64,000 bases of DNA from Polyangiales bacterium (GTDB lineage Bacteria > Myxococcota_A > Polyangia > Polyangiales > JADJQN01). Positions 11,744 through 25,757 of this stretch are shown in pieces; the first letter of the stretch is position 1, and each line of letters opens with the position of its first letter. The position numbers and the translations under genes are program-made. Below the pieces are notes generated by a model that did not search any database, was not told the origin of the DNA, and was given only the letters and a program-made list of their open reading frames with translations. Location: NCBI GenBank assembly GCA_964202905.1, contig CAXNJO010000003.1, positions 96,001-160,000 of the forward strand, written 5' to 3'.

Positions 11744-13507
11744 TCAAGGCATCTGGCGGCGGAAACGGAAGCGCGGCCAGAGCGTCTGTCCGGGCACGCT
11801 GCGCGTCGTGAACTCGATGGTCAGCACATCGCCCTCGATGCCCCAGTCGAACCCCGCGCGGCCGCCCACGGGACACGTCGCGTCGGCTGCGACGGGCGAG
11901 CTGCTCGCGTCGAAGGGCACGGCGAACGTATTCTGCGACGGCTCGCCGAAGCGCGTCCCGCTCTCGGAGAGCACGATCGTGTCCTGCGCGAGATCGTAGA
12001 CGAGCGCGCCGCCACCCGTGACGACCTGCCCGCGCGCGAGCACGTACGTCTCCGCGAGATCGATGTTGCCGATCGGCGTGCCGACGCCGGTCACCGTGAA
12101 GTCGAGCGACTCGAGCACCCAACGCCCATCGGGCACCGGGCCCTGCGTGAGCGCGGGCGGCGCGGGGGCAACATTCCACATCCCGCGCACGAGCGGCGTC
12201 TCACCCGTCATGCCCGCAGGCAGGCACGCGCCCGGCGAATACGCAACATCCGTAGGCCGGTCGGCGGTGCCCTCGTCGCAGTAGCGCGCCTGGGGCGGCG
12301 GCGTCGCGTAGAGGAAGTTGAAACACATCTCGTCTTCGGTGTCCTCGCCGGAGCGCACCGTCGCGTCGCTCTCGTTCTCGAACACGCACGTCGTCTCGAT
12401 GACGTCGCCCGGCGCGAGGCGCTCGGGCAGCGAGTAGAAGAGCTGCGTCTCGAAGCTCCAGCCCGAGAGCGAGACGAGCGGCGTGCGCGTGCCCGACGCG
12501 CGGCGGATCGATTGCGTGAACTCGGACCCGCGCCGGTGCATGTGCGGCATCCCCGCGAAGAGCGTCGTCTCGGCGGGCACCGTGCAGCGGCTCGACGCGG
12601 GCGTGCGCTCGCGCGGCGGCAGCGAGAAGTTCGTCGGGCCGATCGCGATCATCCCGTATTCGGGGCCGGTCGTCGGGCCGAGGTAGAGACGCACGCCCGA
12701 CGAGTCGCGCAGCCCGTCGCGGCGCGCGCCGTTGTTGTAATGGATTTGCACGACGAAGCGCTCGCCCGGCGAGACACGCAGACCGCCCTCGGGGAACTCG
12801 AGCGCCGACTGACCGGGCGCCCACGCGTAGAGGTACTGCGAGCCAGGCGGCATGCCGCCGCCGCCATAACAGTCGTAATTGCCCGGCATCGTCTCGCGGT
12901 CGGTGTCGCGCAGCAGCACCACGTGGTGCAGCACCGAGGTCTCGTCGAAGAGCATCTCGAAGCGGCGCACGAAGCGGTCCGCGGGCACGTCCGCGTCGAA
13001 GACGAAACAGCGGTAGTCGTTGAGCGCGTCCGGCGCGACGACGTACTCGTCCGCGCGGAAGTCGAGCACGTCGAGCCCGGCGGGCGGGTCGTCGGGGGCG
13101 AGCAACGGCGGCGCACTCGCCACGAGCCCGGCCATCGGCGGCACATCCACCGTGCCGCACGACGCCCAGGCCGCGATCACATCGGCGTCGGCCTCGGGGA
13201 TGCGCGGCATACCGACCGGCGGCATCTCACCCGCGAAGAGGCGCTCGCCCATGAGATCGACGATGCGCGTCCCGCCCGGCCCCTGCGCGAGGAGCTCGAC
13301 GTGTTGCAGCAGCGAGAAGGGCGCGCCGAACGCGGGCGTCGCGCCATGGCACGAGCCGCAGTAGCGCTCGAGGCGCGGGCGCACCTCCGCCTCGTACGTC
13401 GCGAGGTCGGGCTGACAGGCCGGCGGCGGCGGCGGATCGTCCGCCGTGCAACCCGCGACGGAGACGAGGAGCGTGGCCGCGAAGGCACGGGACATTGCGC
13501 GCTTCAT
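11744..13507 (-). CDS. Lipoprotein: cytochrome c domain + copper type II (PHM/DBH-like) monooxygenase
   Basis: VAGC lipobox; CGSCH heme motif with distal MPP; LHHVVL, QIHYNN, PHMH and EDEMC copper-ligand motifs. Confidence 0.85.
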   Translation of the reverse strand: MKRAMSRAFAATLLVSVAGCTADDPPPPPACQPDLATYEAEVRPRLERYCGSCHGATPAFGAPFSLLQHVELLAQGPGGTRIVDLMGERLFAGEMPPVGMPRIPEADADVIAAWASCGTVDVPPMAGLVASAPPLLAPDDPPAGLDVLDFRADEYVVAPDALNDYRCFVFDADVPADRFVRRFEMLFDETSVLHHVVLLRDTDRETMPGNYDCYGGGGMPPGSQYLYAWAPGQSALEFPEGGLRVSPGERFVVQIHYNNGARRDGLRDSSGVRLYLGPTTGPEYGMIAIGPTNFSLPPRERTPASSRCTVPAETTLFAGMPHMHRRGSEFTQSIRRASGTRTPLVSLSGWSFETQLFYSLPERLAPGDVIETTCVFENESDATVRSGEDTEDEMCFNFLYATPPPQARYCDEGTADRPTDVAYSPGACLPAGMTGETPLVRGMWNVAPAPPALTQGPVPDGRWVLESLDFTVTGVGTPIGNIDLAETYVLARGQVVTGGGALVYDLAQDTIVLSESGTRFGEPSQNTFAVPFDASSSPVAADATCPVGGRAGFDWGIEGDVLTIEFTTRSVPGQTLWPRFRFRRQMP

Positions 13508-14100: not shown

Positions 14101-15019
14101 ATGAGCGCGCTTCCGCGCGACGCGCTCGGCCTCGCGCTGCGACCACCGCACCACGCCGCGCTCTTCGCGGAACCGCCCCCGCTCGCTTATCTCGAGGTGA
14201 TCAGCGAGAACTTCCTCGGCACAGCAGCGCTGCCGCGGGAGCGGCTGCTGCGCGCGCGGGAGCGATATCCGATCGTGCTCCACGGCGTGGGCCTCAACCT
14301 GCTTGGCCACGCGCCGCTCGACGAGCCTTACCTCGACTCGCTCTGCCGCCTCGCGGACCATGTCGACGCGCCCTTCGTCACCGATCACCTGTGTTGGACG
14401 GGCGCGCACGGCCTCTCACACCACGACCTCCTGCCCGGTGCCCTTCGTGCCCGAGCTGATCGAGCTCGCGGCGGAGCGCGCCGCCTACGTGCAACGACGT
14501 CTCGGTCGCCCGTTCGGGCTCGAGAATCTCTCGAGCTACGTAGATTTCACGCGCTCGACGATGACGGAGTGGGACTTCGTCTCGGCCGTCGTGCGCGAGG
14601 CGGGGTGCGGCCTCCTGCTCGACGTGAACAACGTCTACGTGTCGAGCCGCAATCACGGCTTCGACCCGGACGACTACCTGCGCGCCATCGACTTCTCGCG
14701 CGTCTTGCAAGTGCACGTCGCGGGACATTCGTGCGAGCCGGACGGCACGCTCGTCGACACCCACGATCATCCGGTCACGGACGACGTCTGGGCGCTCTAC
14801 GCGCGCGCTTGGCGGATGGGCGGCCCCTTCCCGACGCTGCTCGAGTGGGATGAGCGGATTCCGCCCCTCGACGAGGCGCTCGCCGTCCTCGCGCATGCCC
14901 GCGCCGCGCGCGAGGCCGCCGAGTCCCCGCAGACTGCGCCCGATCCCGCGCATCGCGACGCCTCGAGACTCCCCTTCTCGAATCCAGCGTTCGACGCGAA
15001 GAATCCCATGCTCCGATGA
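14101..15019 (+). CDS. DUF692 multinuclear non-heme iron oxidase (MNIO; MbnB/TglH/BufB family), frameshift near 14437
   Basis: GLALRPPH, LEVISENF, HGVGLNL, TDHLCW, HDLLP; then next frame LENLSSY, LLLDVNNVYVS, HVAGH, DTHDHPV, LLEWD. Confidence 0.92.
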
Positions 15020-15895
15020 GCGGATCCTCGACACCCGATTGGCTCGCCCATTTTCAGGCGGGATTCGGCGCGATACTGCGCGAGCCGCTCGATCGCGAGA
15101 CGGGCACGCTCACTGCGCGCGTCGACCGCTATGCGCCGGAGACCGTGCGCGAGATTCGCGACGCCGCGAACGCGAGCGCCGCCGCACGCCTCGCCGTCTA
15201 CAACCGCCAATACTGGTTTCGGCTGTTCAGTGTCTTGCACACGGCCTATCCACTCACGACACGCCTGCTCGGTGCGTGGCGTTTCAACACGCTCGCGCAG
15301 GCCTTTCTGAGCGCCCACCCGCCGCGCACGTGGACGCTCGACGATGTCCCCGAGGGCTTCGACGACGCCCTGCCCGCGCTGCTCGGCGACGACCCCCGTC
15401 GCGAGGTGCTCTCCGAAGCCGCGCGGCTCGACGCGCACTGGCGCCGCCTTTTTCACGCGCCCGACGTCGCGCCCTTTCGCCCTGGCCCCGCCGACGCCGC
15501 GCGCCTGCCCGACGCGCGCCTGATCCCATCACCCCGCGTCGCGTTGTGGCGTGAACGCACGGCACTGCTCGCGCTGCGCCTCCAACTCCCGCCCGGGCTC
15601 GACCGTCCGCTCGCGCTCCCGTCTGCGCATCCCGCGAGCGCATGGTTCGCGCTCTGCGCAGAGCCAAATGGCATTCGCGCGCTGCCGCTCGACCCGCGCG
15701 AGGGCGCGCTGCTCGCGCTGCTCGCGCGACATCCAGTGCGGGACGCGCTCGCGCTCCTCGAGGCGGAGTGCGCCTGCCGAGCGAGCGCGACTGCCCTCCC
15801 CGCGAAGACACAGCGCTGGCTCGCGCAGAGCGTCGCGCGGGGGTTCTGGGCGGGATTCGCGGACGGCGCCGCCCAATCCCACGCTCACGGGATGA
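15016..15895 (+). CDS. DUF2063 (HvfC/BufC-like) MNIO partner protein; 3' end uncertain
   Basis: ATGA overlap with DUF692; RLAVYNRQYWFRL, YPLTTRLLG, F..HPPRTWTL; as sequenced the ORF reads on to 16293 through the island junction. Confidence 0.8.
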
Positions 15896-15931
15896 CGCAG
15901 GTATATCCGGTGCAGGTGTTGAGGCCGGCGC
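15884..15931. repeat. 48-bp direct repeat, left copy (copy of precursor gene 3' end)
   Basis: CTCACGGGATGACGCAGGTATATCC[G/C]GTGCAGGTGTTGAGGCCGGCGC; 47/48 identical to 19806-19853. Confidence 0.95.
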
Positions 15932-15954
15932 CTCGCCTCAGGCCGCGTGCCCGC

Positions 15955-16416
15955 TCACAGCGCTCGACGGGCAAGATGGCTGAGCGCCGCAGCCGATTGC
16001 ACCGACGCGCGACCGACATCGCAGGCGATGTTGAGAAGGTTCGAGACAGCGGAACAGAGGACGTAGGCGACGATCCCCGCCGCCATGGCTGGGATGCCAA
16101 CCAACCATCCGCCTCGTTCTGCGAACAGCAACGACGCCAGCCCGAATCCCACTCCCACGAAGAGATTGACCCATGCAGCCGCCACGAGGAGATTCGCAAC
16201 GAAGTGGGCGTGGGCATAGGTCGGGACAGAAGGTTCGACGTACTCGGAATCATCACGCGCGGAGGAGAAGGGAGCAGGAACGCGACGCGCTGATTGTCCA
16301 CCTGTCGCCCGCGTTGATTGCACTCCGCCGAACGCCTGCACATCCGATGAACCGCAGTGGCCGCAGGCAGAGCCTCGATCCGCCAACATCGCCTGACAAT
16401 TTCCACACACGTACAT
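15955..16416 (-). CDS. Zinc-ribbon membrane protein
   Basis: MYVCGNC..CGHCG followed by two hydrophobic segments. Confidence 0.65.
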   Translation of the reverse strand: MYVCGNCQAMLADRGSACGHCGSSDVQAFGGVQSTRATGGQSARRVPAPFSSARDDSEYVEPSVPTYAHAHFVANLLVAAAWVNLFVGVGFGLASLLFAERGGWLVGIPAMAAGIVAYVLCSAVSNLLNIACDVGRASVQSAAALSHLARRAL

Positions 16417-16516
16417 CCCAAGGTCTCCCTTCACGACGACAATTCCGGTCGCCTGCATAACCACAACTCACATAAAACCAAATCTTAACCACCGACTCGC
16501 GCTAGGGTCTATTTCG

Positions 16517-17953
16517 GGCACTCCACCCGGTTTGATGGGTTCACAACAGGTGCTCATGCGTGACGTGGTGTGAGCACAAGGCCCGAGCAACAAAGGTAGA
16601 GCGTCGCGATGAGAGCGGTCGCGGAGTGGAAGCCGAAGGCTCGTTTCGTGATGACTCTGGCCTTCCCGTTGAAGCCCTCGCTGCGCCCGTTCGAGATGCC
16701 AGTGCGGATGTACGCGATTATGCCTTCGAGGTGTTTGCGGATCGTCTTGCCGACTCTCACGAAGGGCTTGAGCTGCGAGCGCGTGGCCCAGTCGATCCAG
16801 TTCTCGAGCCTGCGTTCGGCATCGTCTACCGTGGCCGTGCTCAAGATCCACGCGAGCATCGTCTTGAGCATGTAGGCGCGGTAGAGCGGCGCATTGGTCA
16901 CCATCACCGTCGATATCCGTTCGGTGTCCTTCGGCGTGTGGTTCACCTCGTTGCGGTGGAGCGAGTAGCGCGTGTTCTTCACGGCCTTGCCCTCCGGAGT
17001 GTTCTTCAGCTCGTGGACGATCTCGCGTCGAACTTCGTCCAGCGCGTCGTGAGCCAGCCGCTGCACATGGAAGCGGTCGAATACGATCACCGCGTTCGGC
17101 GCGTTCTTCTTGATCGCCGCCTCGTACGCGGCCGACATGTCGATCGAGACAAACTCGAGCTTCGCGGCGCGAACAGAGCCCAAGTCCCCGAAAAACTGGT
17201 CGACCGTTGCACCGCTGCGTCCTTCGCTCGCCCAGACGAGTCGGCCGCGGTCGTGGTCCACGACGACGCTAATGTACTTGTGGCCCTTGCGGTACGAGAG
17301 GTCGTCGAGCCCGATCGCGCGCAGCCCGTCGAGCAAGTCGCCGCCGGCGCGGAGCAGACGAGCGACCACGCGCGAGATGATGTTGCCGACGGTGTCCCAC
17401 GAGATGCGCATGTCCCGTGCGACGCGCGTCCGATCCGCACCTTGCGCCTTGTAGGCCACGAGCTCCTCGAAGTCCGACGTGTGCCAGGCCGCGTGCTCCG
17501 CCCACGGCACGCGCTCGGTCGTGGGGCCGCACTGTTGGCAATCGACACGGGCCAGTCGGTAGCGGAGGTACACCCGCGTCTCGCCGAGATCCGTGTGCCG
17601 CCATTGTCGCACTCGATGGTCATAACCTCGCCTGCAACGCCGCCCACAGGAGCCGCAGCACGACGTCCGTGTCGTCGGCTTCACGTCAAGCACGAGCGTC
17701 TGCCGGTCGGCGCTCAGCTCGAACGCGATCACGACCGTGTGTTGGGGGTGGAGTCGTGATAGCGAACGGAGTAGCGTGGTGGCGCGCATCGGGCCTCGAT
17801 GTGGTTGGCGTAGAGAACCAAACCGTACCGCGGTCCGTGCGCACCAAGTACGCCGTCATGCTGATGGCCATATCACGCGAATTGCCCTTCTCTCGCCGCA
17901 TCTTCTCGACCCAGAACCCGCTTTCGGAGCCCACGAAACCCAGTCGGAGAGCC
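16517..17953 (-). mobile_element. ISL3-family insertion sequence, apparently intact
   Basis: Imperfect terminal IRs (GGCACTCCACCCGGTTTGATGGGTTC / reverse complement GGCTCTCCGACTGGGTTTCGTGGGCTC); 8-bp target duplication CTATTTCG at 16509-16516 and 17954-17961. Confidence 0.9.
16554..17789 (-). CDS. ISL3-family transposase
   Basis: Zn finger CGSC..CQQC, GLDDLSYRKGHKY, SIDMSAAY, FDRFHV, SNGRSEGFN, AFGF. Confidence 0.95.
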   Translation of the reverse strand: MRATTLLRSLSRLHPQHTVVIAFELSADRQTLVLDVKPTTRTSCCGSCGRRCRRGYDHRVRQWRHTDLGETRVYLRYRLARVDCQQCGPTTERVPWAEHAAWHTSDFEELVAYKAQGADRTRVARDMRISWDTVGNIISRVVARLLRAGGDLLDGLRAIGLDDLSYRKGHKYISVVVDHDRGRLVWASEGRSGATVDQFFGDLGSVRAAKLEFVSIDMSAAYEAAIKKNAPNAVIVFDRFHVQRLAHDALDEVRREIVHELKNTPEGKAVKNTRYSLHRNEVNHTPKDTERISTVMVTNAPLYRAYMLKTMLAWILSTATVDDAERRLENWIDWATRSQLKPFVRVGKTIRKHLEGIIAYIRTGISNGRSEGFNGKARVITKRAFGFHSATALIATLYLCCSGLVLTPRHA

Positions 17954-18037
17954 CTATTTCGGTCCCCGCGAGGCGAACAACAGGTGCACGACCACGATCA
18001 GTGCGTGTGGTCGCGCTCGTCCGTGGCGCGCTTTGCT

Positions 18038-19759
18038 CTATCGCCCGGCACGCGCGAAGAATAGTTCAATCACTGTTCCGCTTTGCTCAAACCGCCTCAC
18101 TTCTCCAGTCGAGTCAGTGCTGATCAGTTGGCCTTGCTCACGAGACGAGATCTCGTAAAGAGCAGCATTGTCCCCGCGACCTCCACCGTCGTGATCGCGA
18201 AGATGGATGATCAGTCTCTCGCCGCCGGAAAGCGCGAAGGTCCCGAGGAGGTACGACTCCCCTGCCCAGCCCGCTACCAGACCCGGCCTCGAGATTCGTT
18301 CCCCATGACTCGTCTCAATACCTTCCCTGTTACGAAATCCGGCGGTGACCCAGATTTCTGGCGATTCTCCTTCGAACATCCCTTGATCCCAAGGACCGTT
18401 TGTCCGACGCGGGGGAAACCGTACGGATCGCACAGCAATCCTGAACTGATCGAGCACTGAACGTTGTACCGCGCAGTCCGGCACTGGCGTGAGTTCGACG
18501 GCAACAACCTGAAGCGGTCCATCTTCACGATAGAACGCTTGCACTTGCTCCATAGGAATGGCGTTAGGGGTTTCGACTCCTCTCGGACGAAACCCGCGAG
18601 CCTGCAACGTCGATGCCGCTTGACCTGTTGTTCGTGAGCGCGAAACATCACCGCTGAAAGGTCCAATACCCCCCGACAACGACGCCGTGATTTCGACTTC
18701 CGTTCCGCAATAGGCTGCATCGAATCGACGCCCGTAGATTAGCTTGGAAACGAAATAGCGAGCCTGCGGCGGAAGGCTGGATTCCGTGAAACGAAGCCTT
18801 CCCGTATTCAACTGCTCTAAATGGTCTTCTTGGATGACCGAGACAGTCCGGATACGGACTTCTCGATTCCTGCCAACCTCTGCTTCGAAGTTGAAAGCTC
18901 GAGCAGCGGCTCGAAACTCAACTGCTTCGTCGAAGCTGAGCGTTGTACCCACAAAATTGTTTGTTGGTGCACTTTGGACATCATCCGCGCGAACTGGAAG
19001 ATGCTCCACGGCTCCTTGGAGGGGTTCCAAATCATCGGAGTACAAGCGCCCCAAGGAGCTTGAACCCATACCCCTTGCTAGCGGCAAGGTTTCCCTTGAT
19101 CGAGTCGTCCTCGTCGCGTTCTCGCCGCACTCACTCGGTGGCCCCGAAACCGCTGCATTGGCTGTCGAAGGGGACGAGAAGTTCCCGCTGCTCGCCGCCG
19201 AGGCAACGGCATGATTTGCTGCGGAGGCCACGGCGTTACGGGGCGGGAGCTGGTCGCGTCTGCTCGTGATCGTCAGGCGGGCGGAGATGCTTCGAGCAGA
19301 TTCGTAGGAAGCTACCCATACCAACCATCCCCCGGAATCCACTCCGTTCAAGTCGACCATCGGGTTGGTGCTCTCGGGGATGCCGTCGTCATTGCAGAAC
19401 CATCGTCCGCTCGGTGAACGGAGTACGAGGGCCGCATCTCCGGTCCCTGCATCCACGAAGATGCGCATGAAATCCACGCGCCCTTGAACGACGACTCGTA
19501 GGCCCGGGGTGGATGCGGAATAGCCAAGGCAACCCTCCCCGAGGTTCATGGTCTGAACATTGATTTCCGGCCCTGCACCGGCCACACCCGCCGCGACGGG
19601 AATCTCAAACCCGGCAGCGAGCGTCGAAGCATCCACAATTTGAGTCCCGTGTCGTGCAGCCGTTCCATCGAGCGAGAGATTTTGAGCGCGTGCGTTTGAA
19701 GGTGCACTGCTCATCCAGACTCCGACGCCGATCATCAAGAGCAGCAAGACGCGTCGCAT
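18038..19759 (-). CDS. Secreted multidomain protein: PPC-like domain, possible MACPF/CDC-like region, C2-like domain
   Basis: Signal peptide ending ARA-Q; CLGY..LVLRSPSGRWFCNDDG..WVASY; YFVSKLIYGRRF; PWD..PEIWV..LRDHD. Confidence 0.7.
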   Translation of the reverse strand: MRRVLLLLMIGVGVWMSSAPSNARAQNLSLDGTAARHGTQIVDASTLAAGFEIPVAAGVAGAGPEINVQTMNLGEGCLGYSASTPGLRVVVQGRVDFMRIFVDAGTGDAALVLRSPSGRWFCNDDGIPESTNPMVDLNGVDSGGWLVWVASYESARSISARLTITSRRDQLPPRNAVASAANHAVASAASSGNFSSPSTANAAVSGPPSECGENATRTTRSRETLPLARGMGSSSLGRLYSDDLEPLQGAVEHLPVRADDVQSAPTNNFVGTTLSFDEAVEFRAAARAFNFEAEVGRNREVRIRTVSVIQEDHLEQLNTGRLRFTESSLPPQARYFVSKLIYGRRFDAAYCGTEVEITASLSGGIGPFSGDVSRSRTTGQAASTLQARGFRPRGVETPNAIPMEQVQAFYREDGPLQVVAVELTPVPDCAVQRSVLDQFRIAVRSVRFPPRRTNGPWDQGMFEGESPEIWVTAGFRNREGIETSHGERISRPGLVAGWAGESYLLGTFALSGGERLIIHLRDHDGGGRGDNAALYEISSREQGQLISTDSTGEVRRFEQSGTVIELFFARAGR

Positions 19760-19805
19760 GGTGCACCTCGAAACAAGAAGTATTGACTCTGACTCTGTGA
19801 AAGAA

Positions 19806-19853
19806 CTCACGGGATGACGCAGGTATATCCCGTGCAGGTGTTGAGGCCGGCGC
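19806..19853. repeat. 48-bp direct repeat, right copy
   Basis: Matches 15884-15931 with one synonymous difference (Thr ACG/ACC). Confidence 0.95.
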
Positions 19854-20431
19854 AGGTGTGCTCGGACCAGACGCCGATGGTCTGGTCGTACGAGAATCCT
19901 GCGCAGGAATTGCGGCCACCGCAGGTGCGGGTGGATTTCGACGTAGCCGGACGCCGCGTCACAGAGCGCGGTGAAGTCCTCGAGCGAGATCGGCATCGCG
20001 GCGTCGCGCGAAGTCACCACGCGCACGCGGTCCGCGTCGCAGCGCGCATCGAGCAACCCGGCATCGAGCGATTCGCCAGCGTCGATGTCCGTGCCCGCGT
20101 CGAAGGACACGGCGGCGTCCATGTCCACGCCCGCATCGGTGTCGGCGCCTGCATCGGTGTCTGCCGCAGCGTCGGTGTCGCTGCCAGCATCGGTGTCGGC
20201 GCCCGCGTCCTGCGCGCGACCCGCGTCGGTGTCTTGACCAGCGTCGACCGGCGCGCTCGCGTCACGCCCCGCATCGACCGCCGGCTCGTCGTCGCCGGGG
20301 CCGCAGGCGCCCGTGAAGAAGAGCAAACCACCGAGGGCGGCGGACAAGAGCGACGCGCTCGCCGCAGGAGGCGCGGGGCGGGAGATGAGGTCGTCGAGGG
20401 GCATGGTGGTCGCGCGAGGATAGCGGATCAC
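19807..20431 (-). CDS. Putative MNIO RiPP precursor lipoprotein (bufferin BufA2-like Cys motifs); one extra base near 19925
   Basis: LLFFTGAC lipobox, DAG-repeat linker; removing one base gives ..EIHPHCGGRNSCAGFSYDQTIGVWSEHTCAGLNTCTGYTCVIP*; start is 20431 or 20404. Confidence 0.75.
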
Positions 20432-23754: not shown

Positions 23755-23814
23755 GGAGATGCTGGTATCACGAGCGAAGGCGCTCGCGGGGGACGCACGC
23801 GCGGGGCGCGACCG

Positions 23815-25757
23815 TCAGTGCACCGCGCCGACCCGCTCGGCGAGGGCCACGGGCGCACCGCCGCGGCGCGGATCGCTCGCGCCGACGAGCGTGCCGTCGG
23901 GCTCGACGAAGATGGCCTGCACATCGCCCTGGAGCGGCTGCGACGCAGACGCGCTCGGTGGCGGTGTGGCCCATGGCCGTCAGGGCTGCGACCACGTTTG
24001 GCTCGAGCCCACCGCGCTCGAACTGCAAGGTGTCCGGCAGGTGCTGGTGGTGCAGGCGCGGGGCCGCGAGCGCCTCGCGCGGCGTCATGCCGAAGGTGAG
24101 GACGTTCTCGATCGACCTGCGCCACCGAGCTGATGATCGTGGGGCCGCCGGGGCTGCCGAGCACGAGCCGCACACGCCCCGTCACACCATCGCTGACGAT
24201 GGTGGGGGACATCGACGAGAGCATGCGTTTTCGCGGCGCGATCGCGTTCGCCTCGCCCATCACGAGCCCATATTGGTTGGGCGCGCCGGGGTTCGCGGCG
24301 AAGTCGTCCATCTCGTTGTTGAGGAAGAAGCCCGCGCCCTCGACGACGACGCGCGCGCCGTAGAGCGAGTTGATCGTCGTGGTGACGGCGACGGCGTTCC
24401 CGTCGCCGTCGACGACCGAGTAGTGCGTGGTGTGCGTGCCCTCGCGCGGGGTCTGCGCGACGGCGGGCACGGGCAGGCCCGCGGGCACGTCACGCGAAGG
24501 CGTCGCGCGCGCAGGGTCGATCGTCGCACCGCGCGTGGCGAGATATTCGGACGAGAGCAGCGCTTCCGTCGGTACATCGACGAAGGCCGGGTCGCCGAGC
24601 AGCGCGTTGCGGTCGGCGAAGGCGCGGCGCGAGGCCTCCGCGAAGAGGTGCACGTGCTCGCGCGAATGGAAGCCGAAGCGCTCGACGCGGTGCGGCTCGA
24701 GCATCGCGAGCAGGGCGCCGAGCGCGACGCCGCCCGACGAGGGCGGACCCATGCTGTCGACGTCGTGACCACGCACGCGGACGCGCACCGGCGCGCGCCA
24801 CACCGCCTCGTAGGCGGCGAGATCGGCCTCCGTGATCAGGCCATTTCCGCGCGTCATCTCGCGCGCGACGAGCTGCGCGGTGCGCCCGCGGTAGAAGCCA
24901 TCCGCGCCCTGGTCGCGGATGCGCGCGAGCGTCTGCGCGAGGTCGCGCTGCGCGAGCACGTCACCGACGCGCAGCACGTGCCCCCCCGCGAGGAAGATGC
25001 GCGCGGTCTGCGGGAAGCGCGCGAAGAAGGCGTCGCCCATCCGCGCGAAGGAGAACGCGAGGCGGTCGTGCACGACGTGTCGCTCGGCGAGCGCGATCGC
25101 GGGCGCGACGAGGTCCCCCCACGGCAGCGCGCCGTGGCGCTGATGCAGCGCCCACATCCCGCGCACGCTGCCCGGCACGCCCGCTGCGCGGTGGCCGATC
25201 GCGGCCTCGGGGAGCACGCGCCCGTCGGGTCCGAGGAACATGTCGCGCGTCGCGGCGGCCGGCGCCGTCTCGCGGAAATCGAGCGTCGACGTCTCGCCGG
25301 CCTTCGTGCGCGCGACGAGGAAGCCGCCGCCGCCGAGGTTGCCCGCTTCGGGATTCACGACCGCGAGCGCGAAGTGCACGGCCACGACCGCGTCGAAGGC
25401 GTTGCCGCCGCGCCGCAGCATCTCGACGCCGACCTCGCTCGCGATGCGATCGGTCGACGCGACCATGCCGGCGCGCCCGCGCGCGACGAGCACGTCGTCG
25501 GCCCCGATGCGCCAGCCCGCGGGGATCGCGCGCCGCATGGGCTGCGCGACGTCTTCGCCCTCCTCGGGAGCGCGCGTCGCGGGATTCGCGGCGGGCGCGG
25601 CGCAGCGCGACGACGATACCTGCGTCGGCAAGGGCGCGGGATGCGCGGACGGAGCGCTGCCGCACGCGGCCACGAGGGGGAGGACGGCGAGCGCGACGAC
25701 CTGCGCGACGACCCGCGCCGGAAGCGCGTGAAACCACCGCGGAACACGCGAGATCAT
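23815..25757 (-). CDS. ggt: Gamma-glutamyltransferase lipoprotein, frameshifts near 24115 and 23945
   Basis: GGNAFDA, DFRETAP, PPSSGG, TTHYSVVD, LNNEMDDF, LSSMSP, GSPGG, APRLHHQHLPD, GASDPRRGG. Confidence 0.92.

Follow-up and report, generated by a model that had tools for sequence, protein, structure and literature searches.

The window analysed here is a 64,000-nucleotide stretch of a Polyangiales bacterium (positions 96,001 to 160,000 of contig CAXNJO010000003.1, assembly GCA_964202905.1). It contains an intact three-gene cluster made up of an MNIO gene, a DUF2063 partner gene and, convergent with them, a gene for a 198-aa cysteine-rich precursor (Table 1). Judged by its sequence, this precursor belongs to an unannotated family that is separate from the Buf2 bufferins and has a rewired cysteine pattern. 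Our preferred reading, to which we give a probability of about 0.6, is that the cluster and its Buf2-related precursor make a membrane-anchored copper-binding protein, likely a thiooxazole-bearing one, in the manner of a lipid-anchored bufferin. The window lies within a 5.68-Mb genome of 19 contigs, whose closest homologous loci are found in Myxococcota-type metagenome-assembled genomes.

Both enzyme genes had been placed on the plus strand by an earlier reading of the bare sequence (hereafter the sequence-only reading), and both are borne out by profile matches. PF05114 is matched in two frames (14101-14436, model positions 2-105; 14303-15016, model positions 99-261), which places a single +1 break near 14434-14438. 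The top NCBIfam model for this MNIO is that of BufB (NF050167), at 103.5 and 184.3 bits for the two pieces (sum ~288, cut-off 310), and the enzyme agrees with the consensus at all 19 His, Asp, Glu or Asn columns that are at least 90% conserved among 97 MNIOs. The partner gene matches PF09836 from 15016 at 65.3 bits (cut-off 27.2), and its product gave a weak HvfC match in the NCBIfam scan; four further extra bases in this gene (15772, 15783, 15790 and 15868), once discounted, give a protein of 291 aa with its stop at 15893-15895.

The precursor is open in frame 0 as far as an EIHP motif, while its cysteine core lies in the next frame and ends at a TGA at 19809-19807. The raw open reading frame (ORF) call joins it to an island gene (18038..19759), and read through by reference it comes to 198 aa, in line with the product of about 200 aa that had been expected. 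One extra base had been suspected at ~14437 and at ~19925, and contigs from two runs lack it at each site. The contigs compared came from five of 16 listed runs, four of them from one study and none of them RNA. One base is absent at 14438 (X1 contig) and 14434 (X2 contig) for the MNIO break, and at 19924 (X4 contig) and 19927 (X2 contig) for the precursor break; these contigs have a depth of 3-5, only 24 nt separate the 19927 gap from the end of the X2 contig, and X4 represents a related strain. All indel rows displayed, 12 of 15 in the first comparison and six of six in the second, are bases missing from the read contigs. Because short-read contigs without the extra base were found at both sites, both frame breaks are assembly errors. 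The core is read in a single frame in all 13 full-length homologous loci, and four proteins close to the window precursor (P0026, P0030, P0031 and P0034, at most 91% identical to each other) are intact. Elsewhere in the window, a gamma-glutamyltransferase-like gene (23768-25731, minus strand) also looks frameshifted near its 3' end, as fits an insertion-prone assembly.

Some details of the gene as first described have changed. Because three close relatives (P0026, P0031 and P0034) begin at the equivalent Met, translation almost certainly starts at ATG 20404 rather than 20431. The core, given as HCGGRNSCAGF, begins earlier, including the invariant C148 and a variable C122. Ahead of the first Cys of the motif, the residue is probably Thr instead of His: four of the five closest relatives have Thr there, and the X2 gap at 19927 also yields Thr. 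A promoter search of the locus gave no sigma-70 match.

The relationship to Buf2 is apparent in profile comparisons. Against NF050166, the BufA2 model (cut-off 60 bits), the window piece scores 14 bits, below the cut-off; all 12 relative cores match it weakly (member 1 at 14.9 bits, best E 1.6e-4), and the search of the genome itself with this model gave no match. An hhalign comparison of the core with nine Buf2 sequences gives 95.7% (E 9e-9) over 34 columns, with the two CxGxNxC motifs in register. By these comparisons the core is homologous to the Buf2 bufferins, as its resemblance to the BufA2 motif had suggested, yet outside Buf2 by the criteria tested.

The family is large. Our searches returned 76 proteins, 194 representatives at 50% identity, 138 proteins (with a fused alignment) and 388 (with a short alignment), the best ~8,000 candidates being scored in each of the searches that gave 76, 138 and 388, and, clustered at 90% identity, the family numbers at least 388. 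Among the matches listed, members mostly go by 'hypothetical protein', and some carry a cytochrome c label. The full core is present in 419 of 425 collected proteins; C161, C184, C190 and C195 occur in all 419, C148 in 417, H182 in 405 and C167 in 396. Nine proteins have two to four tandem copies, and we therefore take the domain unit to run from C148 to C195; P0078, P0125, P0133, P0194 and P0204 are predicted lipoproteins with 2-4 such copies, and genome G203 has three tandem precursors (L075:5999-7498). A variant with Gly for the second motif Cys occurs in L074 (genome G291), L088 (genome G309), P0053, P0057, P0059 and P0065-P0068. A literature search found no description of the family, the short members of which could figure in the supplements of PMC13056109 or PMC12452194; two core motifs went unmatched in the available spreadsheets of PMC12452194, whose rows give accessions rather than sequences.

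Homologues of the core are co-located with the two enzyme genes, as the sequence-only reading had anticipated. In the 13 closest full-length loci (12 genomes), DUF2063 is always convergent with the precursor, overlapping it in seven, and the MNIO gene comes next in 12, the single miss stopping at a contig end. DUF2063 adjoins the precursor in 18 of 25 metagenome loci, a partly redundant set in which the misses are two contig ends and five orphans. Across 401 genomes of the class the family was matched in 21, and across 401 of the phylum in 14. One of the 21 (G382) is a canonical Buf2 and was dropped from the linkage count, and the short weak matches L017-L021 were also left out. In 16 of 19 additional class genomes an MNIO gene lies no more than ~5 kb away, and G396 has its clade MNIO on another contig. 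Outside the class, precursor, MNIO and DUF2063 form a co-directional operon in all seven loci, the precursors there being distant and fused.

A tree of 104 MNIOs sampled from this phylum, with Shimodaira-Hasegawa-like approximate likelihood ratio test (SH-aLRT) values from a short search and with kin that are not independent, tells the same story from the side of the enzyme. The 40 MNIOs linked to the family fall without exception, together with one from a separate contig, into a single clade (SH-aLRT 89; 99 when the deep row L189 is left out), which contains no Buf2-linked MNIO and groups with the Buf2-linked MNIOs as sister (99.8); the Buf2-linked label needs one change on the tree (support 99), and the 22 stand-alone rows form one group (support 92). 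That the precursor family has a dedicated MNIO clade, sister to the Buf2-linked MNIOs, is thus well-supported. Because of the synteny and this dedicated clade, the view that the three genes form one system is supported at the level of sequence. The genome also has a second, divergent MNIO (L002, G000:C18:13335-14021), followed by a zinc alcohol dehydrogenase-like gene, and a TonB-dependent receptor gene adjoins the stand-alone cluster in L008, L013 and L014.

In the reading that we prefer, the cytoplasmic MNIO and DUF2063 proteins would oxidise core cysteines to 5-thiooxazoles, at -4 Da each, by the chemistry of bufferin and oxazolin enzymes, which make such rings (PMC11626156, PMC13056109, 10.64898/2026.06.05.730506). 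The cysteines most likely to be modified are the four of the two CxGxNxC motifs, C161, C167, C184 and C190. The protein would then be exported by Sec, receive a diacylglyceryl group on C34, lose its signal and so be anchored, for which DybA and NedA offer a precedent. The core would be held as a small beta-alpha-beta domain on an 87-residue acidic tether, with one disulfide predicted from C148 to probably C195 (C161 being the rival partner). At the cell envelope it might bind copper through thiooxazole N and S, perhaps with H182, and buffer the metal or hand it on.

The fold comes from an AlphaFold2 model of the relative P0031, in which the core (predicted local distance difference test, pLDDT, 72-96 per 10-residue block) is modelled as strand-helix-strand, a hairpin and a final strand, while the linker has low pLDDT. 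Foldseek found no match to this model in the PDB at E<=0.001 and the best Z in a VIA search was only 3.9, neither of which proves a new fold; an ESM Atlas search with the model gave no usable match, and a PDB sequence search gave one chance match (E 0.013). Pfam matches to 12 cores were weak and scattered (best E 0.0067, at most two of the 12 cores per family), and nothing was matched in PHROGs or Rfam.

Copper binding is proposed because the enzymes are sister to bufferin enzymes and because of the neighbours of a cytochrome c-fused subfamily. Among 78 ORFs chosen for a scan (a selection rather than every gene), copper-handling genes were found in nine of 13 fused loci, a figure with no background rate beside it; they were YtkA (four loci, one just below the cut-off), MbnP with the di-haem peroxidase CCP_MauG (three), SCO1, DUF1775 or a MopE motif. 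SCO1 and MopE are linked to copper. Copper links of YtkA, DUF1775 and MbnP/MbnH have been reported (PMC13344008, PMC13729199).

Several points weigh against the copper-binding, lipid-anchored reading. A scan of 22 neighbouring ORFs in 11 stand-alone (window-type) loci found no copper domain. Some precursors are orphans (the near-duplicates L041-L044, and L046), with neither MNIO nor DUF2063 matched in their vicinity, and the two genomes examined for the Gly variant, G291 and G309, have MNIOs solely outside the family clade. The signal n-region has a net charge of zero or below in 134 of 226 members and is rarely strongly positive. The disulfide pair could not be read from the P0031 model, and the window core has seven cysteines, which leaves C122 over. 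Finally, the -18 Da of Buf2 is explained as four -4 Da cysteines plus one disulfide, printed as CysI (Cys24)-CysVI (Cys50) (PMC11626156); the 26-residue spacing of Cys24 and Cys50 fits CysIII-VI in most of 22 Buf2 repeats, CysI and CysVI being usually 38 apart. The Buf2 labels are therefore ambiguous, so that our choice of modified cysteines in the family is an inference with a rival, and PMC12452194 describes the Buf2 chemistry as not identified. A rule that orphans lose C167 was considered and dropped, since it is true of G291 and G309 and contradicted by L041-L044; the latter face a porin-like gene, and L043 and L044 adjoin an apparent cysteinyl-tRNA synthetase.

In the most probable alternative, the domain does not buffer copper passively but serves as a module for redox or copper delivery, its modified Cys/His site exchanging electrons or copper with heme c (in the same chain in fused members, in trans in stand-alone ones). 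A circularly rearranged bufferin domain would then be an MNIO-made copper cofactor site, wired to a c-type heme in the fused subfamily as a membrane-anchored heme-copper redox or copper-loading protein, and the window gene would be its heme-less, long-tethered version. A C-terminal CxxCH domain is found in 169 of the 419 members, a share inflated by the search with the fused alignment. This fused subfamily (L077-L090 and L184-L190; P0072-P0076 and P0214-P0320; some with MopE-type repeats) has a distal Met conserved at 90% or more, and the cut-offs of PF00034/PF13442 are passed by some fused members only, P0075 and P0114 among them. MbnP with the di-haem peroxidase, YtkA and SCO1 near fused loci speak for such a module, and DUF3570 occurs near nine of the 13 and DUF2271 near four. 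In the best trees, stand-alone MNIOs are nested among fused ones; a cytochrome-fused ancestor is nonetheless not shown, since monophyly of the fused forms withstands an approximately unbiased (AU) test (p 0.156). The window precursor, moreover, has neither a heme domain nor a cytochrome neighbour, and rare Buf1-cytochrome c fusions had already been noted (PMC12452194). We regard the redox module as a doubtful explanation of the window gene.

It seems unlikely, too, that the precursor is an MNIO substrate with another chemistry or metal, such as a macrocycle, a cross-link or non-copper binding. The separate MNIO clade, the beta-hairpin in place of CysIII, the new invariant Cys and the chemical variety of MNIO subfamilies (PMC12452194, Table 1) would suit this idea, but the nearest sister group is that of the Buf2-linked MNIOs, both CxGxNxC motifs are in register with Buf2, and related bufferin and oxazolin enzymes yield 5-thiooxazoles.

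We think it quite improbable that the N-terminal segment is a leader or an uncleaved membrane anchor and the product released or soluble. The n-region of the window precursor is atypical in its net charge of -1, and the leader motif is more conserved than is usual in signal peptides, as this alternative would expect. On the other side, [GAS]C follows the hydrophobic stretch, within 14 residues of the leader motif, in 309 of the 320 members that carry that motif, and the layout of hydrophobic stretch, Cys and DAG repeats recurs in 59 of 113 DAG-rich ORFs of the same genome; because of these two observations, lipidation at C34 is predicted as likely. The sequence-only reading had the protein tethered to the membrane and displayed on the surface. 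The tethering is thus likely, while nothing supports surface display. Its DAG-repeat tether is present and is a generic linker of the host genome, not special to this system; in relatives the linker has a median length of 85 aa (range <10 to ~150 residues). That the locus is dead in this strain, through real frameshifts or disruption by the island, is extremely improbable: the breaks are in the assembly itself, and the read contigs have little depth and in part stem from related strains, but at each break the base is missing from two runs, extra bases of this kind are seen in other genes of the window too, and the insertion spared both stop codons.

Table 1. Coordinates of the cluster, its precursor segments and the inserted island, in window positions.
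Feature	Position	Strand	Remarks
MNIO (DUF692/PF05114), closest to BufB	14101..15019	+	one spurious extra base ~14434-14438
DUF2063 partner (PME type 1), 291 aa	15016..15895	+	PF09836; stop inside left 48-bp repeat
Left copy of 48-bp repeat	15884..15931	.	precursor 3' end (last 14 codons + stop), 11-nt overlap with DUF2063 stop
Inserted island	15932..19805	-	two unannotated minus-strand ORFs and ISL3
Island ORF, 169 aa, hydrophobic, CxxC pair	15955..16464	-	no match in Pfam, NCBIfam or PHROG
ISL3 insertion sequence (transposase 16554-17789)	16517..17948	-	second copy 99.9% identical on contig C6
Island ORF, ~573 aa, secreted-looking	18038..19759	-	N-terminal part with paralogues on C2 and C8
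Right copy of 48-bp repeat	19806..19853	.	3' end and stop codon used by precursor
Folded Cys core, residues 122-198	19807..20041	-	C148, C161, C167, C184, C190, C195, H182, variable C122; spurious base ~19924-19927
Acidic low-complexity DAG linker, residues 35-121 (87 residues)	20042..20302	-	18-nt repeat unit
Predicted lipoprotein signal peptide, Met1-Cys34	20303..20404	-	hydrophobic N-terminus ending at C34

The island that separates precursor and partner gene is 3.9 kb long, with a GC content of 0.58-0.64 compared with 0.71 in its flanks, and the X1 and X2 contigs span its junctions. Without it the precursor would lie tail-to-tail with DUF2063, as had been proposed, and the X4 contig has this empty site, 15864 being joined to 19806 with 18 bases between. 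The bordering direct repeat (47 of 48 positions identical) occurs in two copies only across the genome. The DUF2063 stop overlaps the original stop of the precursor by 11 nt, as it does in L009 and L010; the 48-bp duplication kept the stop codons of both overlapping genes, and therefore left both genes whole. ISL3 is bordered by an 8-bp target duplication (16509-16516 and 17949-17956), no integrase was matched in the island, and its ORF of ~573 aa has no family match in Pfam, NCBIfam or PHROG. We infer that the island is a later cargo insertion at an att-like site, a side event in the history of the system. Among 58 related loci, none showed another island or an incomplete 3' copy; what G566 carries is an older tandem duplication (L169:3836-5489, 70% identity) of the precursor and the DUF2063 3' end. 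G573 (L170) has a 17.5-kb inverted duplication of the entire locus, possibly an assembly artefact.

Upstream, and divergent from the MNIO gene, lies a gene for a predicted lipoprotein (11744-13507, minus strand) with a CxxCH motif and the copper type II monooxygenase domains PF01082 and PF03712, which we exclude from the system because it is unmatched in the 13 homologous loci. An Mpo1-like gene (PF06127; 13698-14096, plus strand) stops 4 nt short of the MNIO start, and the two may share a transcript; the Mpo1-like gene, too, had no match in those 13 loci.

With this family, a well-supported MNIO clade gains a candidate substrate. In PMC12452194, precursors of <200 aa preceding the MNIO gene were collected, and ~4,000 large-cluster MNIOs were without a known precursor type; published surveys, with their length limits (<200 aa; 160 aa) and the precursor-before-MNIO rule, were poorly placed to find this family. 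With the Buf2 motif cysteines kept and the others rewired, the family is a natural test of which cysteines are modified and how bufferin enzymes recognise a core, and the subfamily fused to cytochrome c offers a way to ask whether the thiooxazoles made by MNIOs act as a redox metal site or as a copper sponge alone.

Among known systems, the closest are the Buf2 bufferins (BUF_6/12Cys), with which the family shares the two in-register CxGxNxC motifs, an export signal, a BufB-like MNIO of a sister clade, the DUF2063 partner and, in the models, a helix with C-x3-GG followed by a strand. It differs in that its core departs from the order and spacing of the six or twelve Buf2 cysteines: it is without CysIII and has a GFSYD...EH hairpin in that place, its helix Cys (C148) stands before the motifs and not after them, and the C-terminal CysVI is absent, while an invariant C-terminal Cys (C195) and a conserved His are added. 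It also has its own MNIO clade and frequent fusion to cytochrome c, and gene order in the window's subgroup is convergent rather than co-directional as in bufABC. The strand-helix-strand is C-terminal in a Buf2 model (pLDDT 68) and N-terminal in the family, and in a position profile 25 Buf2 tails score -18.9, compared with -31.6 for shuffles (sd 10.4) and -37.3 for other cysteines; hhalign did not reach the helix in either native or reordered alignments (E 0.12-0.17). A circular permutation relative to Buf2, with a hairpin replacing CysIII, is suggestive from these comparisons, not established. Canonical Buf2 precursors of lipoprotein type occur in the same phylum (L092, L107 and L137, one of them two-domain), with MNIOs outside the family clade, and ~16% of Buf2 are predicted lipoproteins (PMC12452194).

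The DAG-RiPPs lipo-DybAH and lipo-NedABC resemble the window system in being MNIO substrates whose Cys core sits at the C-terminus, behind a predicted signal peptidase II (SPII) signal and an acidic spacer, and lipidated, MNIO-modified DybA and NedA have been demonstrated experimentally, in a study whose mining covered precursors of 50-160 aa (PMC13056109). Our precursor is without CPxCGxG and EGKCG, its lipidation is predicted, and at 198 aa it exceeds the 160-aa ceiling, inside which shorter members fall. Of chryseobasin/DybA-type features, CPxCGxG is absent and the ChrH model gives the window MNIO 36 bits (cut-off 600). With the oxazolins (Buf_EGKCG, HvfABC) the system has in common a related MNIO (NF003818 ranks second among the models), the DUF2063 partner and the precedent of copper-binding thiooxazoles; it differs in having no EGKCG repeats in the window sequence or the family consensus and a predicted compact domain instead of a repeat. 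Fusions of Buf1 to cytochrome c, and MerC-bufferin fusions, likewise join a bufferin-type domain to other domains, cytochrome c included; the Buf1 fusions are few cases, (PMC12452194), whereas the fusion described here marks out a large subfamily built on a different domain. Measured against these systems, the sequence-only reading over-rated the novelty of lipid anchoring, already demonstrated (PMC13056109) and predicted for part of Buf2 (PMC12452194), and missed the separate family, its rewired Cys pattern and its large cytochrome c-fused part. Lipid-anchored MNIO products are known biology; the novelty lies in the domain with its rewired cysteines, in an MNIO clade of its own and in the large subfamily fused to cytochrome c.

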